The notes beneath the pieces are model-generated. The model was not told the origin of the DNA and did no database searches. It worked only from the letters and a program-made list of their open reading frames with translations. Of a stretch of 64,000 bases of DNA, positions 712-34,459 are shown one piece after another. A program made the translations under genes and the position numbers. This DNA comes from a bacterium (GTDB lineage: Bacteria > Patescibacteriota > Patescibacteriia > UBA9934 > GWF2-40-263), in contig JAGVFR010000028.1 in NCBI GenBank assembly GCA_020057555.1, forward strand, positions 12,444-76,443, read 5' to 3'. How positions within the stretch are numbered: position 1 is the first letter of the stretch; every line of letters starts with the position of its first letter.

Positions 712-1104
712 ATGGAATCAAAACAACAAACAAACTCTTTTCTTGATTCTCAATGGCTTTCAATTCCAGAAGGCCAACTTTCTGTTGATGTACATGAAAC
801 TCCGTCAGAGATTATCGTTCGTTCCGCTATTGCCGGAGTTCTATCAAAGGACCTTGAAATCGTTGTAAGTAATGACACACTTACAATTCGAGGAACACGG
901 CACAATGAATCAAAAACAAAAAAAGGCTCGCGCACTCATATTCAAGAATGTCATTGGGGTGCGTTTTCACGATCAATCATTCTTCCATCACATGTTGATC
1001 CAAATAAAACAAAAGCCACTCTTCAACGCGGTGTTTTAACGGTTGTTATGAAAAAAATTGAAATGGACAAACATGTTCCAGTGCTTGATCTCGAAGATGT
1101 ATGA
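712..1104 (+). CDS. Hsp20 / alpha-crystallin family small heat-shock protein
   Basis: Part of the 667..1104 ORF. The alpha-crystallin-like core reads SVDVHETPSEIIVRSAIAGV...TLTIRGTRH...GAFSRSIILPSHVDPNKTKATLQRGVLTVVMKK. The start at M(ESKQQ) was chosen because it follows the promoter. Confidence 0.7.
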   Translation: MESKQQTNSFLDSQWLSIPEGQLSVDVHETPSEIIVRSAIAGVLSKDLEIVVSNDTLTIRGTRHNESKTKKGSRTHIQECHWGAFSRSIILPSHVDPNKTKATLQRGVLTVVMKKIEMDKHVPVLDLEDV

Positions 1105-2918
1105 AAAAGACAATCTTGTTTGTTGGTCTGGGGTTGGCAGTCATGATTATTTTTGTGACTGCACTTTTTTTTGTTTGGTCGCTCCCATATAAAAATCATA
1201 TATCACCAAATGTTTGGATCGGCCCGATTGATGTTGGTGGACTTGATCCTGAAACAGCACGCGAAACAATTCAAACACAAATTGATTCACTTGTTGCAAA
1301 TGGAATTCCAGTACAGATCAATGGAATTAGCAAACCACTTGCTCTTGCCACACTTGTTTCATCTGATTTGAATGAGGAAGTAACTTTTGATTTGGATCGT
1401 GCAATGCAGAAAGCTCAAGCCGTTCCGCTTGTTTCATTGAGATTGTGGAATAAAAAAATAATTCCGCTTACAGTTTCTATTGCAAAAGAAAATTTGAAAA
1501 AAAATATTTCTGAATTATTTCCAAACGCAGAAATACCGGTTCAAGACGCGCGATTTTTAATTGTCCCAACTGCAGTGAATAATGAATGGTCAGTTCAAGT
1601 GATTGAAGATAGAGCAGGAAATGAACTGAACTGGAATCCATTCTTTCAAACACTCGAAACTCAACTCATGAATCTTGATGATGCAGAGATCATTCTAAAA
1701 GTTTTTGACAAAGCACCTTTTGTAACAAAACAAATAGCAGAGCAACAAATAGATCAAGTGAACGAGATCCTAAAAAATGACCGGATTCAAATCTCGTATT
1801 CTGACGTATGGAAACAACCGCGAATACTTGAGCTTACAAAGTGGAAACTTTCAAAAATGCTTGTTCCAACTCAAAGTGAAAAAGTTGGAATCGATGAAAC
1901 TCAACTAAATCTTTTCCTTGATGATTTTGCTAAAACATTTGAACGGCCAGCTCAAAACGCAAGATTTGTTTTTGAAAACGGACGTGTTATTGAATTTACT
2001 GAAAGCAAATCAGGAGTAAAAATTGATCGAGTTGTAATGTTCAATCTTCTTTCACAAGCAATTCAAGAACCAATCAATGATCCAATTCAACTTGCTGTTA
2101 TTGTTGAAGAACCACTTGTAAAAACAGGAGATGTGAATGATCTTGGTATTCAAGAAATTCTTGGTTTTGGAACTTCAAGTTATCGTGGCAGTCCAATGAA
2201 TCGCCGTAAGAACATTCAAAATGGAGTTCGGCTATTGAACGGACTTCTTATTGCGCCAGGACAAACTTTCTCTTTATTGGAAGCATTAAAACCATTTGAT
2301 ACAGAGAACGGATATCTCCCAGAGCTAGTAATCAAAGGAGACAAGATCACACCAGAACTCGGAGGAGGACTTTGCCAAATCGGAACAACAACATTTCGTG
2401 CGACAATGAACTCTGGTCTTGCGATTGTTGAACGTCAAAATCATTCACTTGTTGTTTCATATTACAATGATCCTGCAAATGGAAACCCTGGAACTGATGC
2501 AACTATCTATGAACCTGCTCCTGACTTCAAATTTTTGAATGACACTGGTAATTACATTCTTTTCCAAGCAGAAAATTTAACAGACACACAAGAATTACGT
2601 TTCACTTTTTGGGGTACTCCGGACGGACGCAAAGGTTCATACTCTGCGCCAAAAATTTTGCGATGGATTCCAGTTGCAGAACCTCAAAAAATTAAAACAA
2701 CAGATTTAAAACCTGGAGAAGAAAAATGTCAGGAATCGCATATCGGTGCTGATGCGTCGTTTGTTTACAAAATTGAAAATCCAGATGGAACAGTTGTCGA
2801 AATAACATTCACTTCTCACTATCGTCCTTTACCAAAAATATGTTTGATAGGAGTTGAGGAAAAAGAAACTGTAGCGGAAGGCTTTGGCCTTCCAGAAGCT
2901 GAAAGTATAACTCCATAA
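1101..2918 (+). CDS. VanW-family protein with an N-terminal transmembrane anchor
   Basis: 605 aa. It has an N-terminal hydrophobic helix and a VanW-like block GGGLCQIGTTTFRATMNSGLAIVERQNHS...YYNDP. Its start overlaps the hsp20 stop (ATGA). Confidence 0.6.
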   Translation: MKKTILFVGLGLAVMIIFVTALFFVWSLPYKNHISPNVWIGPIDVGGLDPETARETIQTQIDSLVANGIPVQINGISKPLALATLVSSDLNEEVTFDLDRAMQKAQAVPLVSLRLWNKKIIPLTVSIAKENLKKNISELFPNAEIPVQDARFLIVPTAVNNEWSVQVIEDRAGNELNWNPFFQTLETQLMNLDDAEIILKVFDKAPFVTKQIAEQQIDQVNEILKNDRIQISYSDVWKQPRILELTKWKLSKMLVPTQSEKVGIDETQLNLFLDDFAKTFERPAQNARFVFENGRVIEFTESKSGVKIDRVVMFNLLSQAIQEPINDPIQLAVIVEEPLVKTGDVNDLGIQEILGFGTSSYRGSPMNRRKNIQNGVRLLNGLLIAPGQTFSLLEALKPFDTENGYLPELVIKGDKITPELGGGLCQIGTTTFRATMNSGLAIVERQNHSLVVSYYNDPANGNPGTDATIYEPAPDFKFLNDTGNYILFQAENLTDTQELRFTFWGTPDGRKGSYSAPKILRWIPVAEPQKIKTTDLKPGEEKCQESHIGADASFVYKIENPDGTVVEITFTSHYRPLPKICLIGVEEKETVAEGFGLPEAESITP

Positions 2919-2984
2919 CTTTCAAATCTATCCACAGTGAACTCTTGCTTATGTTTTCTGAATGGACGTAAGATCGAGACAGGA

Positions 2985-3125
2985 AATAAAAAAACAGACA
3001 TCGATCTGCAGGCAAGAAATTTCATTTATGGGAAGGTCAAGTCCGGAGACCAGAACTTCCATAAATTGAAATCCCATGCTTGTCGTGCCTGCAGATCACT
3101 GCCTGTTTTGAAACTCCTTGAATTG
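2985..3125. repeat. ~130-nt imperfect palindrome with nested stems, in an intergenic region
   Basis: atctgcaggca at ~2998 and tgcctgcagat at ~3101 form a perfect 11-bp inverted repeat. Inside it, tttatgggaag and cttccataaa pair, and the arms align further with bulges. Confidence 0.6.
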
Positions 3126-3217
3126 AAGTCAACACCCTAGTCTATCAGGTCGCAAAAAAATTGTCAATGGCTGACACCAAATGAATGTTACACTGATTTG
3201 ACGGCCTTTGCAAGCAA

Positions 3218-3258
3218 AAAGACTTTTCCAAGAAAAGTCCTTTTATTTTTGTCAAAAC
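3218..3258. terminator. Bidirectional intrinsic terminator (GACTTTTC / GAAAAGTC stem flanked by A and T runs) downstream of clpP
   Basis: aaaaagacttttccaagaaaagtccttttattttt. Confidence 0.6.
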
Positions 3259-3292
3259 CGACAAAAATTACCTATTTATCCAGAGGTTGTCC

Positions 3293-3889
3293 CTAGCTTA
3301 TCACCTTATCAATCAAACCGTACTTAACCGCATCTTCTGGATCTAGGAAGTAATCGCGCTCTGTATCAGCCGCGACCTTCGTGATTTTCTGCCTTGTATG
3401 TTTTGAAAGAATTTGATTAATGCGATCCTTAATCTTCAAAATCCGTTCAGCATGAATCTTAATATCAGTTGCCTGACCTTGAACTCCACCAAGAACTTGG
3501 TGAATCATCACTTCAGAGTTTGGAAGCGCAAAGCGCTTCCCTTTTTCTCCTGCGGCAAGCAACACAGCCGCCATTGAAGCGGCTAGCCCAACACAAATAG
3601 TTGAAACATTTGGTTTGACATATTGCATCGCATCGTAGATTGCAAGCCCGGCAGTAACAGAACCACCAGGTGAATTTACATACAGTTTGATGTCTTTTGT
3701 TTTATCTTGGCTTTCTAAAAAAAGCATTTGCGCAATCACAAGGTTTGCAACCGTGTCGTCGATTTCTGTTCCAAGAAAAATTATTCTATCTTTGAGCAAA
3801 CGAGAATAGATATCATAAGCCCGCTCACCCATGTGGGTTTTTTCTATGACAGTTGGAATAAGAATTTGGTTTGTTGGGGAGAGTGACAT
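3293..3889 (-). CDS. clpP: ATP-dependent Clp protease proteolytic subunit
   Basis: 198 aa. Motifs seen: [40 protein letters not shown] and the catalytic region [31 protein letters not shown]. Confidence 0.9.
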
Positions 3890-3953
3890 AGTGAAAAAGT
3901 GAATGAGTGATTGATTTTATATTATTTTTTCCCTTTTCTACTTTGCTACTCTA

Positions 3954-4949
3954 CTACTTTCCTACTATCTTTTCAACCCTCCAACATCCATTCTCGCCAC
4001 ATAGCAACATCGCATTTTTTATTGTGTACCCAGCAGCCCTTTCATGACCGCCTCCACCCTTTTCTCTTGCAATCGCACTTACATCGCGTGTTGAAGAACG
4101 CATACTAACCTTAACACCTTGTTCTGAAGTTTCTCGCAAAACATAAATTGTTTCTGTGTCTGTCACAAGACTTAAAAAATTCGACAATCCTTCAATCTCT
4201 TCTTCACTGACTTGATTTTCCTTAATGTCTTTTCGAGTAAGACACGTGATTACAGAATCAAAGTCTGGGTGAAAATGAAGACGCTCAAGCGCCAGACCCC
4301 AAACACGCAATGCCGCAACAGAGCGATTCTTAAATAACATACGAATAGCGTCTTGAATTCGTGCACCTGATAAAATAAGTTTGGAAGCAATATCGAGCGC
4401 GCGATTATTTGTCGCGGAGTTTGTAAACGCTGTAGTGTCAAAACAAAGTCCTGCAAACAAACAAGTCGCGGCGTCTTTGCTAATTGGTAAATGATGACTT
4501 TCAAAAAATCCGTAAACAACTTCGGCAGTTGCTGAAGCATCAACAATCACTTGATTGATGTCACCGTATAAAGAATTTGTTTTGTGATGATCGATATTGA
4601 TAATTCTCGGGTTCCCAGGAATAAGTGCGACAAGACGTTTAATAAACTCCGAATCAGAACAGTCAAACGAAACAACAAGATCAATAGTTGGATCAGAAAA
4701 AATCTCGATATTTTGAGTACAACGATTTATAAATGGAAGTGAGCTATAAACTTCAGGAACTGTGGTTGCAACATACACAAACGGTTGCTGTTTCCCATGA
4801 GTTTGCATAAAATCAACCATTGCAAGAGATGATCCTAGGCTGTCGCCATCAACACGTTCATCAGAAATAAACACAGGATTGTGTGCGTGCATCAAAGCCT
4901 CGTGGATTTGTTTATGTTTATAAGATTCCATAAGTGGGATAGTGTACAA
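3954..4949 (-). CDS. nrnA: DHH-family phosphoesterase (NrnA-like oligoribonuclease / pAp phosphatase)
   Basis: Motifs DERVDGDSLGS, IDHHKTN and a C-terminal DHHA1 GGGGHERAAG. Confidence 0.7.
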   Translation of the reverse strand: MYTIPLMESYKHKQIHEALMHAHNPVFISDERVDGDSLGSSLAMVDFMQTHGKQQPFVYVATTVPEVYSSLPFINRCTQNIEIFSDPTIDLVVSFDCSDSEFIKRLVALIPGNPRIINIDHHKTNSLYGDINQVIVDASATAEVVYGFFESHHLPISKDAATCLFAGLCFDTTAFTNSATNNRALDIASKLILSGARIQDAIRMLFKNRSVAALRVWGLALERLHFHPDFDSVITCLTRKDIKENQVSEEEIEGLSNFLSLVTDTETIYVLRETSEQGVKVSMRSSTRDVSAIAREKGGGGHERAAGYTIKNAMLLCGENGCWRVEKIVGK

Positions 4950-9820: not shown

Positions 9821-11502
9821 CCACCGCTACTAGTTCAAGCACCCAAATCATCCAAACACTCTCCCGAGGGAGGCCTCGTGAGAGTTTTCATTACGCTTGA
9901 AGTTAGACGTCCATTACAATTGAATAACATCACATAATATGAACTTCTCTGTTGTGTGATTGTAATGTTTGTTCACGCAAAGAAGCCTTCTCAGTGGCCC
10001 TTTGCAATGACAGAATCCTTTGCTCCTTCTGGAGCATTGGATCTTTACTGAGAGTTTGATCCTGGCTCAGGACGAACGCTGGCGGCAGGTCTAAGGCATG
10101 CAAGTCGAACGGTTTGTTGTTGCCCGCAAGGGTGATGGCGAATAGTGGCAAACGGGAGCGTAACACATTGGTAACCTACCCCGAGCTCGTGAATAATTCA
10201 CCGAAAGGTGGACTAATACACGATATTGATGAGGGGACGCAAGTCATTCTCATTGAAAGCTTCGGCGGCACGGGAGGGGCCTATGCATTATCAGCTAGTT
10301 GGTGAGGTAATGGCTCACCAAGGCTATGACGATTACCGGGCGCGAGAGCGTGGCCCGGCTCACTGGGACTGAGACACGGCCCAGACACCTACGGGTGGCT
10401 GCAGTCAAGAATATTCCTCAATGCACGAAAGTGTGAAGGAGCTATGCCGCGTGCCAGACGAAGGCCTTCGGGTCGTAAATGGCTTTTATAAGGGACGAAC
10501 AAATGACGGTACCTTATGAATAAGGGGCTGCTAATCACGTGCCAGCAGCAGCGGTAATACGTGAGCCCCAAGCGTTGTCCGGATTTATTGGGCGTAAAGA
10601 GTCTGTAGGCTGTTCGATGTGTCATTCGTCAAATCTTCAGGCTCAACCTGGAGGCTGCGAGTGAGACTATCGGACTCGAGAACGGGAGAGGTGCATGGAA
10701 TTGCCGGTGTAGCGGTAAAATGCGTTAATATCGGCAAGAACACCAAAGGCGAAGGCAGTGCACTGGAACGTTTCTGACGCTGAGAGACGAAAGCGTGGGT
10801 AGCGAATGGGATTAGATACCCCAGTAGTCCACGCCGTAAACTATGAATGCTAGGTTTCGGGAGTATCGACCCTCTCGGAGCCGTTCAACCAAGTTAACAC
10901 GTTAAGCATTCCGCCTGGGAAGTACGATCGCAAGATTAAAACTCAAAGGAATAGACGGGGACCCGCACAAGCGGTGGAGCGTGCGGTTTAATTCGATGGT
11001 AAGCGAGGAACCTTACCTGGGCTTGAAAGACAGCTGCAATCCTGATGAAAGTCGGGACGCCTTCGAGGGTGCTGTCTAGGTGCTGCATGGTTGTCGTCAG
11101 CTCGTGGTGTGAACTGTTCCCTTAAGTGGGGTAACGAGCGCAACCCTTATCCCGCGTTATAAGTGTCACGGGAGACTGCCCTCGCAAGAGGGAGGAAGGT
11201 GAGGATGACGTCAAATCAGCATGGCCCTTATGTCCAGGGCGACACGCGCGCTACAATGGCCGGTACAATGGGCAGCCAAATCGTAAGATGGAGCTAATCC
11301 CACAAAGCCGGTCCCAGTTCAGATTGAGGTCTGCAACTCGACCTCATGAAGCCGGAATCGCTAGTAACGGCCGATCAGCCACGCGGCCGTGAATACGTTC
11401 TCGGGTCTTGTACTCACCGCCCGTCACGTCAAGAGAGTTGGCAACACCCGAACGTCGCCGTAGGGCGACGGAAGGTGGGGCTGATGATAAGGACGAAGTC
11501 GT

Positions 11503-12325
11503 AGAGTGAATCTCATTTGTTGCGACTCTCGACAGTAATGTCGATGTTAAAATCTGACTATATCGGTGAAGCCCTATTCCCTCTCTCGGGAAGGGTAATA
11601 CCGAGGGAAGCTTTTATACGATTATGGCAAACAGAAAAGAGTATCACCTAATGCGTCAGTCGGTGCATCTCACCGATTATCAACGTTCGATGCTTATCGG
11701 AACACTTCTTGGAGATGGAAGTCTCGTTGAGACAACATCAAAAAAGAACCTCCGATTAAAAATCGAGTATTGCGATGCTCAACGTGATTATGTCTTCTGG
11801 AAATATGAATGCCTTAAATCGTTTGTCTTAACTCCTCCGAAGTTCCAAATCAGGAACCGCTCGTGGATGTTCAAGACCATTAGTCATCCAGAATTCACGA
11901 TGCTCGGCGATCTCTTCTATGAGAAACGTCGAAAAATCGTACCAGTGGAAATTATGATCCTTCTCAAGGATCCGCTTTCCCTGGCAGTGTGGTTCATGGA
12001 CGATGGATCGAAAAATAGAAATGATGGGTTGATTCTAAATACGCAATGTTTCACTAATAATGAAACAAAGCGATTGAAGAACTGCCTTTCAACTAATTTT
12101 GGCATCGACCATGTTTCACTCCAAAAAGATAAATCTGGGTGGCGCTTGTATGTTCAATCGGCATCGTCCGGTCATATGACACAAGTCATGAAGCCTTACG
12201 TCCTGCCGTGTCTAACATACAAATTGATAAGCCCTGTAGAGACTACACGTCGGCCCCGTCGCCTAATTTCGTAGGCAGGCGGGTGAAGATATAGTCCATG
12301 CCCGGAGTAATCCGTGGAATCACAG
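11503..12325 (+). mobile_element. Group I-like intron at 16S position ~1506 carrying a LAGLIDADG homing endonuclease
   Basis: The 5' exon ends in U and the intron ends in G. A candidate internal guide sequence GCGAC at ~11522 pairs with the exon end GUCGU. An 823-nt insertion splits otherwise conserved 16S sequence, and the ORF fills most of it. Confidence 0.7.
11624..12274 (+). CDS. LAGLIDADG homing endonuclease (two motifs) within the 16S intron
   Basis: LIGTLLGDGSL and LAVWFMDDGSK. Confidence 0.85.
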   Translation: MANRKEYHLMRQSVHLTDYQRSMLIGTLLGDGSLVETTSKKNLRLKIEYCDAQRDYVFWKYECLKSFVLTPPKFQIRNRSWMFKTISHPEFTMLGDLFYEKRRKIVPVEIMILLKDPLSLAVWFMDDGSKNRNDGLILNTQCFTNNETKRLKNCLSTNFGIDHVSLQKDKSGWRLYVQSASSGHMTQVMKPYVLPCLTYKLISPVETTRRPRRLIS

Positions 12326-33002: not shown

Positions 33003-33078
33003 CGGGACGTAGCTCAGTAGGTAGAGCGCCTGGTTTGGGACCAGGAGGCCGCAGGTTCGAGCCCTGTCGTCCCGACCA
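33003..33078 (+). tRNA. tRNA-Pro (TGG), CCA encoded
   Basis: CGGGACGTAGCTCAGTAGGTAGAGCGCCTGGTTTGGGACCAGGAGGCCGCAGGTTCGAGCCCTGTCGTCCCGACCA. Confidence 0.85.
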
Positions 33079-33163
33079 ACTGCTGATAGATTCAGATGTG
33101 ACAGGACGGCTGCGTCGCTCGAGAGAGACAAACTTTGTTTATCTCTCCGCTCGCTATCCTCGC

Positions 33164-33189
33164 CGTTCGAGCCCTGTCGTCCCGACCAA
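33164..33189 (+). repeat. Perfect 25-nt direct repeat of the tRNA-Pro 3' end (T-arm plus acceptor), about 110 nt downstream of the gene. att-site-like duplication.
   Basis: gttcgagccctgtcgtcccgaccaa occurs at 33054-33078 and again at 33164-33188. The 85-nt spacer contains an imperfect palindrome gagagagacaaactttgtttatctctc. Confidence 0.8.
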
Positions 33190-33208
33190 TTCAACAAAAA
33201 ATGCAATC

Positions 33209-33282
33209 GCGGGTATCGTATAATGGTAATACTCCAGTTTTCCAAACTGGCACCAGGGGTTCGATTCCCCTTACCCGCTCCA
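33209..33282 (+). tRNA. tRNA-Gly (TCC), CCA encoded
   Basis: GCGGGTATCGTATAATGGTAATACTCCAGTTTTCCAAACTGGCACCAGGGGTTCGATTCCCCTTACCCGCTCCA. Confidence 0.85.
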
Positions 33283-33320
33283 ACACAAAAGCGGCAGTTC
33301 ATCTGCCGCTTTTGTGTTTG
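33283..33320 (+). terminator. Intrinsic terminator after tRNA-Gly
   Basis: aaaagcggcagttcatctgccgcttttgtgttt. Confidence 0.7.
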
Positions 33321-33976: not shown

Positions 33977-34459
33977 TTACCACTTTTTGTTTGCCATTGT
34001 TATAGCGGCCGCGAGCGCGTCTGCCGCGTCGTCTGGTTTTGGAGGTTTTGGTAAATGCAGAATTTCTTTTACCATTTTTTGCATTCCAGCTTTTGTCGCG
34101 GCACCGTTTCCTGTCATAGCTTTTTTAATTTGCGCTGGAGTAAATTCAAACACAGGAGTTCCTGATTGAGCGGCCATTAGCATTGCAACTCCGCGCGCTT
34201 CAGCAACACACATTGCAGTTGACGAACTTTTCCCAAAAAATAATTTCTCAATCGCAACAGCATGCGGTTTGTGATGCGCGAACAAGTCGCCCAAATCATT
34301 CGCCAAACTTAACAAACGATTTTCAAACGCGTCACCGCTTGTTGTAACCATAACTCCATAATCAACAAGTTCGACTGCTCCTGCATTTACGAAAATAACT
34401 CCAAATCCCATTCGGCCGTATCCCGGATCAAGACCCATCAAAATGTAACCTTGTTCCAT
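33977..34459 (-). CDS. ruvC: Holliday junction resolvase RuvC
   Basis: ILMGLDPGYGRMGFGVI...AVAIEKLFF...DAADALAAAI. Confidence 0.85.
   Translation of the reverse strand: MEQGYILMGLDPGYGRMGFGVIFVNAGAVELVDYGVMVTTSGDAFENRLLSLANDLGDLFAHHKPHAVAIEKLFFGKSSSTAMCVAEARGVAMLMAAQSGTPVFEFTPAQIKKAMTGNGAATKAGMQKMVKEILHLPKPPKPDDAADALAAAITMANKKW

Follow-up and report, generated by a model that had tools for sequence, protein, structure and literature searches.

A putative small folded insertion element at a tRNA-Pro gene of Candidatus Uhrbacteria and its homologs in other Patescibacteria

Small repeat elements of bacterial genomes, among them the Rickettsia palindromic elements (RPEs), Correia/NEMIS, ERIC and RUP, have been reviewed, and RPEs have also been found in frame in protein genes and in the genes for transfer-messenger RNA (tmRNA) and RNase P RNA (Delihas 2008, PMC2229807). 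Here we describe an 85-nt segment between tRNA-Pro(UGG) and tRNA-Gly(UCC) in a 64-kb stretch of a Candidatus Uhrbacteria genome (64,000 nucleotides of contig JAGVFR010000028.1, hereafter the window), together with its homologs elsewhere in the Patescibacteria, or candidate phyla radiation (CPR). These organisms have tiny genomes that are regarded as poor in mobile DNA. The segment appears to belong to a previously unannotated family of folded elements of about 75-110 nt that lack an open reading frame (ORF); our literature searches returned only general reviews of small mobile repeats, with no CPR element of such kind described.

We would put at about an even chance our favored explanation, that the segment is a small non-autonomous folded insertion element whose nearest described kind is the RPEs. 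RPEs are around 100 nt long, lack an ORF and form a stable stem-loop; the members found here are of similar size (85 nt in the window, 78 nt in a pheS gene), and a stem-loop is predicted for them. Both occur between genes, in frame in conserved protein genes (here pheS) and in or beside stable RNA genes, and no mobilizing enzyme has been assigned to either. RPEs have their RNA hosts in the tmRNA and RNase P RNA genes; the present family has them in tRNA-Pro and tRNA-Ile, and one of its copies sits beside a tmRNA gene. The family differs from RPEs in its low copy number in the sampled DNA, in its host clade and in a strong link to the tRNA T-loop, accompanied by partial tRNA duplications. Whereas MITEs (miniature inverted-repeat transposable elements) have conserved terminal inverted repeats, here two internal single strands are conserved while helices and ends vary, and, unlike in MITEs and RPEs, no TA or other regular target duplication was found.

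An earlier note, made from the sequence alone, had pointed to a perfect 25-nt repeat of the tRNA-Pro 3' end about 110 nt downstream. A repeat search recovers the 25-mer GTTCGAGCCCTGTCGTCCCGACCAA as one family with two exact copies spaced by 110 nt (Table 1), with the corrections that the repeat starts at 33055 rather than 33054 and that the second copy lies near tRNA-Gly, 19 nt from its start, rather than immediately before it. At up to 3 mismatches the 25-mer occupies just these two sites in the window and has matches in 0 of 100 shuffles, and no partial duplicate of 13 nt or more was found for any other tRNA of the window. Copy 1 comprises the T-loop, the 3' strands of the T-stem and acceptor stem, the discriminator and the encoded CCA, plus one further nucleotide. 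The 85-nt spacer and its imperfect palindrome are likewise as described before, the palindrome (GAGAGAGACAAAC/GTTTATCTCTC, 33121-33133 and 33137-33147) forming a hairpin in both the minimum free energy (MFE) and centroid structures. Downstream of copy 2, the flanking sequence can be aligned with the usual spacer between Pro and Gly, which puts this copy at the native position of the tRNA end. Within the favored explanation, and with the same middling confidence, we take the second 25-mer to be what was once the tRNA-Pro 3' end, cut off by an insertion of 110 nt made up of a replacement 25-nt 3' end and the 85-nt element.

Related loci were retrieved via RuvC, and the distance from tRNA-Pro to tRNA-Gly was read in each. 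This spacer measures 130 nt in the window and in L001 (RuvC 89%), both of which are occupied; it is 15 nt in L202 (94%, the closest relative found), 14 nt in L003 (89%), 15 nt in L005 (79%) and 1 nt in L010 (74%), all of which are empty. Alignment of the window with L202, L003 and L005 displays a clean indel at the 85-nt element. L003 has a tRNA-Pro identical to that of L001 and a near-identical upstream promoter-proximal box, and so can serve as the empty site for L001. The 110-nt segment is an insertion and is patchily distributed, and the empty sites point to gain or precise loss over short time scales. The earlier note had proposed this comparison of empty and occupied sites and had allowed that the spacer might be conserved in all relatives, which is not the case, as it is missing from L202, L003, L005 and L010.

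Several other features of the Pro-Gly cassette vary among these loci. Its orientation relative to ruvC is inverted in the window and L001 with respect to L202. The tRNA-Gly(UCC) of the window diverges strongly from its relatives in the D-loop, anticodon stem, variable region and T-arm, whereas the gene is near-identical among L202 (despite RuvC 94%), L003, L001 and L005; this suggests replacement or recombination within the cassette. In L008 (10590-12781) the Pro and Gly genes are 2.2 kb apart with two opposite-strand ORFs between them, a different rearrangement of the cassette; with no stub (by eye) and no motif, this gap was regarded as unrelated. Where relatives carry tRNA-Gly, ARAGORN calls a 90-nt 'tRNA-Arg(GCG)' in L009 (10538-10627, minus strand) that keeps the 5' acceptor strand, T-arm and 3' end of tRNA-Gly around an unrelated middle of ~55 nt, and which may be an interrupted or unusual tRNA.

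Homologs of the spacer were sought in metagenome contigs with an exact two-block pattern (two cores separated by a 15-45-nt gap), which gave at least 120 matches. Most of the matches listed were chance occurrences in GC-rich coding DNA, and a subset had a hairpin in the gap and a closing helix; copies were first chosen by eye for the hairpin. A covariance model, R1, built from 14 copies, gave 42-84 bits for 18 hits in 17 sources (15 metagenome loci, the window and L001; L128 duplicates L081) and no more than 30 bits for all other pattern matches listed. A repetition of the element within the window was considered and rejected, as the model has a single hit there. The host contigs range from 34% to 57% GC, and the host of the pheS copy (L130) belongs to the Parcubacteria (Kaiserbacteria/Paceibacteria). 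Outside the cores, L001 and L115 are 77% identical and the window and L001 only 48% identical despite their shared site, so that similarity between elements does not follow the locus. Among the copies examined, neighboring genes have no common theme and no recombinase lies beside the element. Element ends differ between copies, with P1 internal and variable, and a left arm shared by L130 and L138 suggests that subfamilies may exist.

Family members share a layout in which a variable hairpin, P0, is followed by a helix, P1, that encloses UGCGUCGCUCGA, a long variable hairpin, P2, and CUCGCUAUCCUC. A hairpin stands at the P0 position in most members, 2-5 nt upstream of P1, and inspection of the flanks found its sequence not conserved. 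Between the window and L001 spacers, the two 12-nt strands, TGCGTCGCTCGA and CTCGCTATCCTC, are exactly common, while P1 reads ACGGC/GCCGT in the former and TCGGT/ACCGA in the latter, which amounts to two compensatory changes, and P2 of the window (Table 1) is replaced in L001 by CAGTGatCAAAC/GTTTGcCACTG. Over 14 copies the helices covary: 87% of pairing cells are paired, versus 58% in shuffles and 36-44% in slid-partner controls, and double changes are present in 18/18 modelled pairs (P1 7/7, P2 11/11). RNAalifold independently recovers both helices and also sets five invariant pairs within the 'loop'. They contain 10 G-U pairs versus 9 A-C mismatches with no strand preference; G-U being not in excess of A-C, the helices give no hint of the folding strand or of RNA versus DNA. 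The invariance of J12 across the wider set is by construction, since it served as the search anchor. The palindrome had been proposed as an arm-type or core binding site; its sequence changes freely as long as pairing is preserved, whereas a repeat bound by a protein would show the reverse. Nearly all of the 85 nt form one conserved structured unit, which speaks against the decayed or internally deleted island or prophage also considered previously.

Conserved single strands framed by freely covarying helices are the architecture of a functional RNA or of a folded-DNA recognition site, and they match no described family; the motif is a candidate new non-coding RNA (ncRNA), ribozyme or transposition substrate, and the covariance model and pairs of empty and occupied sites make it directly testable. 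Rfam 15 scans of the window, L001, L142 and ten further loci placed nothing over the motif at the gathering score, nor at E<=10 in the regions so scanned, nor at E<=0.5 in the ten-locus scan; in L142, one match to SNORA67 below threshold (16.3 bits and E 1.1, against a gathering score of 45) was regarded as noise. Likenesses to K-turns, retrons, attC sites, DnaA boxes and relaxase nick sites were considered, and the conserved positions fit none of these. A role of J12 and J21 as target guides was also rejected by eye: J12 is complementary to the T-loop of the window (GCTCGA/TCGAGC), and not to the T-loops of L001, L115 and L137.

Several copies lie in contexts unrelated to tRNA genes. In pheS of L130 the motif is antisense, in frame and free of stop codons, and encodes 26 residues, IAEDSERRASSLARSSDAGDMRQQTI (78 nt), that are missing from solved PheS structures and from six close homologs, among them the 95% identical ortholog P0121. 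The empty site reads TTTTTCATC followed by AAGGAT, and the flanks of the 78-nt insert share only ATC/TTATC (3-5 nt). A 75% identical PheS, P0124, has a related insertion at the same codon, with a decayed motif in its gene (16.7 bits). As the pheS copy shows, the unit acts as a separate piece of inserted DNA. Elsewhere, the motif is found between the stop codon of rpmH and the start codon of rnpA in L138 and 20 nt before galU in L199, and in L081, L096 and L142 it is the 3' part of a ~165-nt unit common to three different neighborhoods. This unit (GGTATTAACCCCAGGGCAGAGCCCTGGACCCAACCGC... ending in the motif; L081 10630-10780, L096 7990-8165, L142 160-330) has covarying small hairpins and, in L096, an extra internal segment of 44 nt in which GCCTGCGTCGC is repeated. 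The unit may be a longer ncRNA, or else an extended form of the element. In L127 (948-1134) the element and a terminator-like hairpin stand between the two halves of an imperfect direct repeat of 16 nt (TGCGGAGAGG..GGGA; 88% identity, spaced by 171 nt), the sole non-tRNA copy with a sizeable flanking repeat. Another pheS locus, L206, carries an 86-aa GIY-YIG ORF between pheS and pheT (851-1111) that is missing in L130 and L207, and its pheS is without the 78-nt insertion.

Where the motif lies in a tRNA gene, it sits in the T-loop-coding segment of a broken copy that is always beside an intact one. In L001 the native tRNA-Pro is split, with nt 1-54 retaining the promoter and nt 56-77 just before tRNA-Gly; between them are a 27-nt sequence, a complete tRNA-Pro, the 27-nt reverse complement and the motif, in that order. 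In L115 and L137 (Pro-CGG in both) the motif separates the T-stem 5' strand and T54 from the rest of the T-loop and T-stem, and an intact tRNA-Pro lies just upstream of the broken copy. L105 has two copies beside tRNA-Ile, antisense to the tRNA and accompanied by 5' and middle fragments of tRNA-Ile, and the copy in L089 is ~160 nt from the 3' end of tmRNA. In the tRNA cases, the T-loop-coding segment is preferred as a site or, at a minimum, tolerated. A discrete insert in pheS, copies in T-loops, empty sites and a similarity that does not follow the locus together favor a non-autonomous insertion element.

The tRNA genes at these loci have a further peculiarity. In the flanks of 27 tRNAs, inverted repeats of leader and trailer extend the acceptor stem, with 11-14 of the first 14 flanking positions paired, in L001 Pro, L115 Pro, L137 Pro-GGG, L137 Pro-CGG#3 and L105 Ile, all in motif-bearing loci, versus 0-9 positions in the other 22/27, the window's own included. 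These repeats are 11-27 bp long (L001 11904-12028; L115 5570-5674; L137 3956-4056 and 1109-1210; L105 1883-1987) and fit template-switch repair at the acceptor-stem quasi-palindrome after a break, or equally a helix for RNA processing. The nested tRNA of L001 was also considered as a retro-copy; its inner trailer differs from the trailer of the outer gene, so copying from the same locus fails. L137 holds three tRNA-Pro genes within 4.2 kb (1000-4251, minus strand), where the last ~110 mgtE codons and tRNA-Pro(CGG) are duplicated upstream of a full mgtE-tRNA-Pro pair and a 27-nt tRNA-Pro 5' fragment precedes the Pro(GGG) gene.

Under the favored explanation, the element would have moved in trans through a folded single-stranded intermediate, either DNA or RNA, recognized probably by its structure and the two conserved strands. 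This agrees in direction with the miniature element mobilized in trans of the earlier note, given the dispersed family of small ORF-less members, while the integrase scar offered alongside it is unsupported. Once the element had landed in the T-loop of a tRNA, survival would be limited to cells that reconstitute this tRNA, whether by duplication of the 3' segment, as in the window, or of the whole gene, as in L001, L115, L137 and L105; such rebuilding would account for the orphan stub. The 25-nt direct repeats may also offer a route to precise loss, which fits the patchy distribution. Alternatively, the repeats could stem from an L001-like start, where recombination between two 54-nt 5' copies would yield the exact window layout and a later deletion between the 25-mers would restore the empty site; such an origin is plausible, if unproven. 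By itself, the window also fits integrase-type or Campbell-type integration of a unit already carrying the tRNA tail, whereas that model does not accommodate L001 and pheS, whose junctions have no common core. The window's element would be transcribed along with both tRNAs, and RNase P and 3' processing would release it as a structured by-product of ~130 nt.

ORF-less folded inserts that enter essential genes (tRNA-Pro, tRNA-Ile, pheS) and leave rebuilt copies behind would be a new source of genome change. They would also be an annotation trap for tRNAs and genes, as stubs, nested tRNAs and odd protein insertions.

Movement as folded single strands would recall the HUH systems, IS200/IS605 with its palindrome-associated transposable elements (PATEs) and the repetitive extragenic palindromic (REP) sequences with RAYT. 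The likenesses we infer are a hairpin with adjacent short conserved single strands for recognition, little or no target duplication, empty sites compatible with precise excision and an orientation independent of genes. The family differs in that no TnpA, RAYT or TnpB lies near any copy, no conserved 4-5-nt target is definable, and one composite structure stands in place of paired left- and right-end hairpins. A remnant of a TnpB/IscB omega-RNA or an IS110 bridge RNA was rejected, with no such ORF adjacent to the copies examined and no Rfam match. Archaeal bulge-helix-bulge (BHB) introns, as non-canonical T-loop introns of tRNAs, and group I introns of bacterial tRNA and tmRNA genes share with the family a site inside the T-loop-coding segment of a tRNA gene and a structured inserted RNA (predicted here). 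The window, however, has no 5' exon, and in L115 and L137 this exon is degenerate; the copy in pheS runs antisense, and simple excision in L001 would leave a 6-nt T-loop without T55. Inspection by eye reveals no BHB motif, and Rfam gives no match to a group I intron.

Several observations weigh against an insertion element of RPE type. The invariance of the J12/J21 core is built in by the pattern search, and family membership was initially judged by eye. Conserved loops and covarying stems are kept at the same locus in the window and L001, as a host-selected functional RNA would show, and a single old gain followed by losses could likewise account for the distribution among relatives. The 64-kb window has one copy, the ~170 kb searched at other Uhrbacteria loci have none, and no locus has more than the two of L105; in the DNA searched, this is a low copy number unlike that of classical MITEs, REPs or RPEs. 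By our tally, ~12/16 copies are oriented with local transcription. Finally, neither conserved terminal inverted repeats nor a consistent target-site duplication was found among the copies, and no candidate mobilizing enzyme was identified.

Site-specific recombination is one of two alternatives that we consider unlikely and yet worth serious attention. Here, a circular cis-mobilizable element of ~110 bp, with an attP that carries the last 25 nt of tRNA-Pro and an integrase encoded elsewhere, would have entered by a tyrosine or serine integrase crossover in the T-loop, attL being the rebuilt tRNA and attR the stub. By itself, the window layout fits this, with an intact tRNA, an insert and an exact repeat from the T-stem/T-loop boundary to the 3' end; so do the clean empty sites in relatives and the junctions of all tRNA-linked copies, which fall within the T-loop. 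The T-loop is reportedly a known sublocation of integrase crossover. Integrative elements that target tRNAs and their deletion derivatives of the cis-mobilizable (CIME) type also combine an intact tRNA, an insert, a direct repeat of the tRNA 3' end from the T-arm, empty sites in relatives and a lack of their own recombination genes. They differ from the present case in that the insert here spans 85 nt instead of kilobases, an integrase is neither linked nor close by, members of the family elsewhere are without att-type repeats, and a covarying hairpin lies beside the repeat where a conserved binding site would be expected.

The duplicated tRNA end had been read in the earlier note as the att footprint of a tyrosine integrase. 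The L001 junctions, between GCAGGT and GTTGG and between ACCGAC and CAAGT, share no core, and the pheS copy has at most the 3-5-nt flanking repeat given above, which argues against tyrosine-integrase att sites as the general mechanism. Intergenic copies also lack a tRNA-like repeat, except for the 16-nt imperfect repeat of L127. Pfam scans of 30 ORFs (11.6-54.6 kb of the window, leaving out the ends at 1-11.6 kb and 54.6-64 kb) found no integrase, transposase or reverse transcriptase within ~20 kb of the insert, so that the absence of an integrase from the window, as claimed before, holds for the scanned part. No integrase lies beside the other copies either, and IMG/VR viral contigs gave no real match to the motif (strict and degenerate scans) or to a 24-mer of the tRNA, leaving no source for the att sites in either place. 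A 110-bp circle would, moreover, be a poor substrate for recombination.

A host-selected structured RNA is, in our judgment, about as improbable as site-specific recombination. The motif would be a cis-element or small RNA (for processing, stability or regulation), inherited vertically in the tRNA operon and lost in some lineages, and gene conversion, or a need for a tRNA-like 3' end, would hold the 25-mer to the sequence of the tRNA. Such a role is consistent with unpaired conserved strands flanked by covarying helices, with the motif remaining intact at one locus in two species 11% apart in RuvC while the rest of the spacer is unalignable, and with the stub tracking 3/3 lineage-specific substitutions of the neighboring tRNA in the window and L001. 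The positions before galU (L199) and rnpA (L138), which resemble 5' untranslated regions, the motif as the 3' domain of the conserved ~165-nt unit (L081, L096, L142), the bias toward the sense strand and a natural variant in L105b (C17-G58 to U-A inside the 'loop') point the same way. On the other hand, the copy in pheS runs antisense to the mRNA and forms part of the translated frame, both copies of L105 are antisense to the rRNA/tRNA operon, and the balance of G-U pairs and A-C mismatches reveals no strand preference. Neighboring genes are without a common theme, the motif has persisted in L137 and L105 next to decaying tRNA stubs, and L202, the closest relative found, is wholly without the motif.

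Somewhat less likely still is a new class of structured element in which the two conserved strands and the covarying helices have a catalytic or a guiding role, targeting the T-loop-coding DNA (or RNA) of tRNAs. If it were so, each hit would force a rebuilding of the tRNA and give rise to the orphan stubs, the nested tRNAs and the inverted repeats that extend acceptor stems, and ultra-small bacteria would harbor a tRNA-homing, ORF-less mobile RNA or DNA. That nothing was inserted, and that the repeat is a decayed tandem tRNA-Pro pseudogene or due to chance, is so improbable that we regard it as excluded: partial tRNA-Pro copies do occur in relatives (a 54-nt 5' fragment in L001, 27-nt and 12-nt fragments in L137), but the left spacer has no similarity to the tRNA-Pro 5' part to which the earlier note would have had a pseudogene align (local alignment 12.0 vs shuffle mean 11.9, p = 0.59), neutral decay would not leave 25/25 matching positions beside a remainder that is wholly decayed, the shuffles put the chance expectation of the repeat at about zero, and homologs of the spacer core occur far from any tRNA.

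Table 1. Features of the window around the insertion, with coordinates in the window.
Feature	Position	Strand	Basis or remark
16S rRNA gene, complete	10044-11521	+	no 23S gene after it within the window
LAGLIDADG_2 endonuclease ORF	11624-12274	+	begins ~100 nt past the 16S end
tRNA-Pro(UGG), intact, encoded CCA	33003..33078	+	ARAGORN; Rfam tRNA model, 72 bits
Repeat copy 1: tRNA-Pro positions ~53-76 plus 1 nt	33055..33079	+	repeat search
85-nt inserted element: left arm with P0, then P1/J12/P2/J21	33080..33164	+	missing in alignment of L202, L003 and L005; core homologous in L001
P0 hairpin, CTGA-TAGAT-TCAG	33083..33095	+	MFE and centroid fold
Match to covariance model R1	33102..33170	+	76.3 bits, E 9e-21; sole copy in window
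P1 5' strand, ACGGC, paired with GCCGT at 33162-33166	33106..33110	+	fold; comparison with L001
J12 conserved strand, TGCGTCGCTCGA	33111..33122	+	identical in window and L001
P2 hairpin, GAGAGAcAAAC-TTT-GTTTaTCTCTC (imperfect palindrome)	33123..33147	+	fold; covariation
J21 conserved strand, cgCTCGCTATCCTC	33148..33161	+	window and L001 comparison; family alignment
Repeat copy 2: putative orphan tRNA-Pro 3' stub, at native distance from tRNA-Gly	33165..33189	+	repeat search; alignment with relatives
Native Pro/Gly spacer	33190..33208	+	alignment with relatives
tRNA-Gly(UCC), downstream member of presumed shared transcription unit	33209..33282	+	ARAGORN; Rfam
Perfect 16-bp hairpin followed by TGTGTTT	33282..33318	+	repeat and inverted-repeat search
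RuvC	33977-34459	-	best matches in Candidatus Uhrbacteria and other Patescibacteria

The genome that hosts the window copy is that of a member of Candidatus Uhrbacteria (CPR), and no database record was found for the exact RuvC protein of the window. Genes recognized in the Pfam scans are all core genes, namely rpoB, rpoC, ruvC, ftsK, recA, efp, ssb, rpsF, type IV pilus genes and a signal peptidase. The two tRNAs and their spacer presumably form a single transcription unit; a TTATAKT box 12-13 nt 5' of tRNA-Pro is common to relatives, and the promoter scan made no call on the plus strand. The hairpin downstream of tRNA-Gly is likely the terminator of this unit, although the consensus terminator scan made no call there. 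Toward the start of the window, tRNA-Phe and tRNA-Ile lie downstream of the LAGLIDADG_2 ORF, on the opposite strand.

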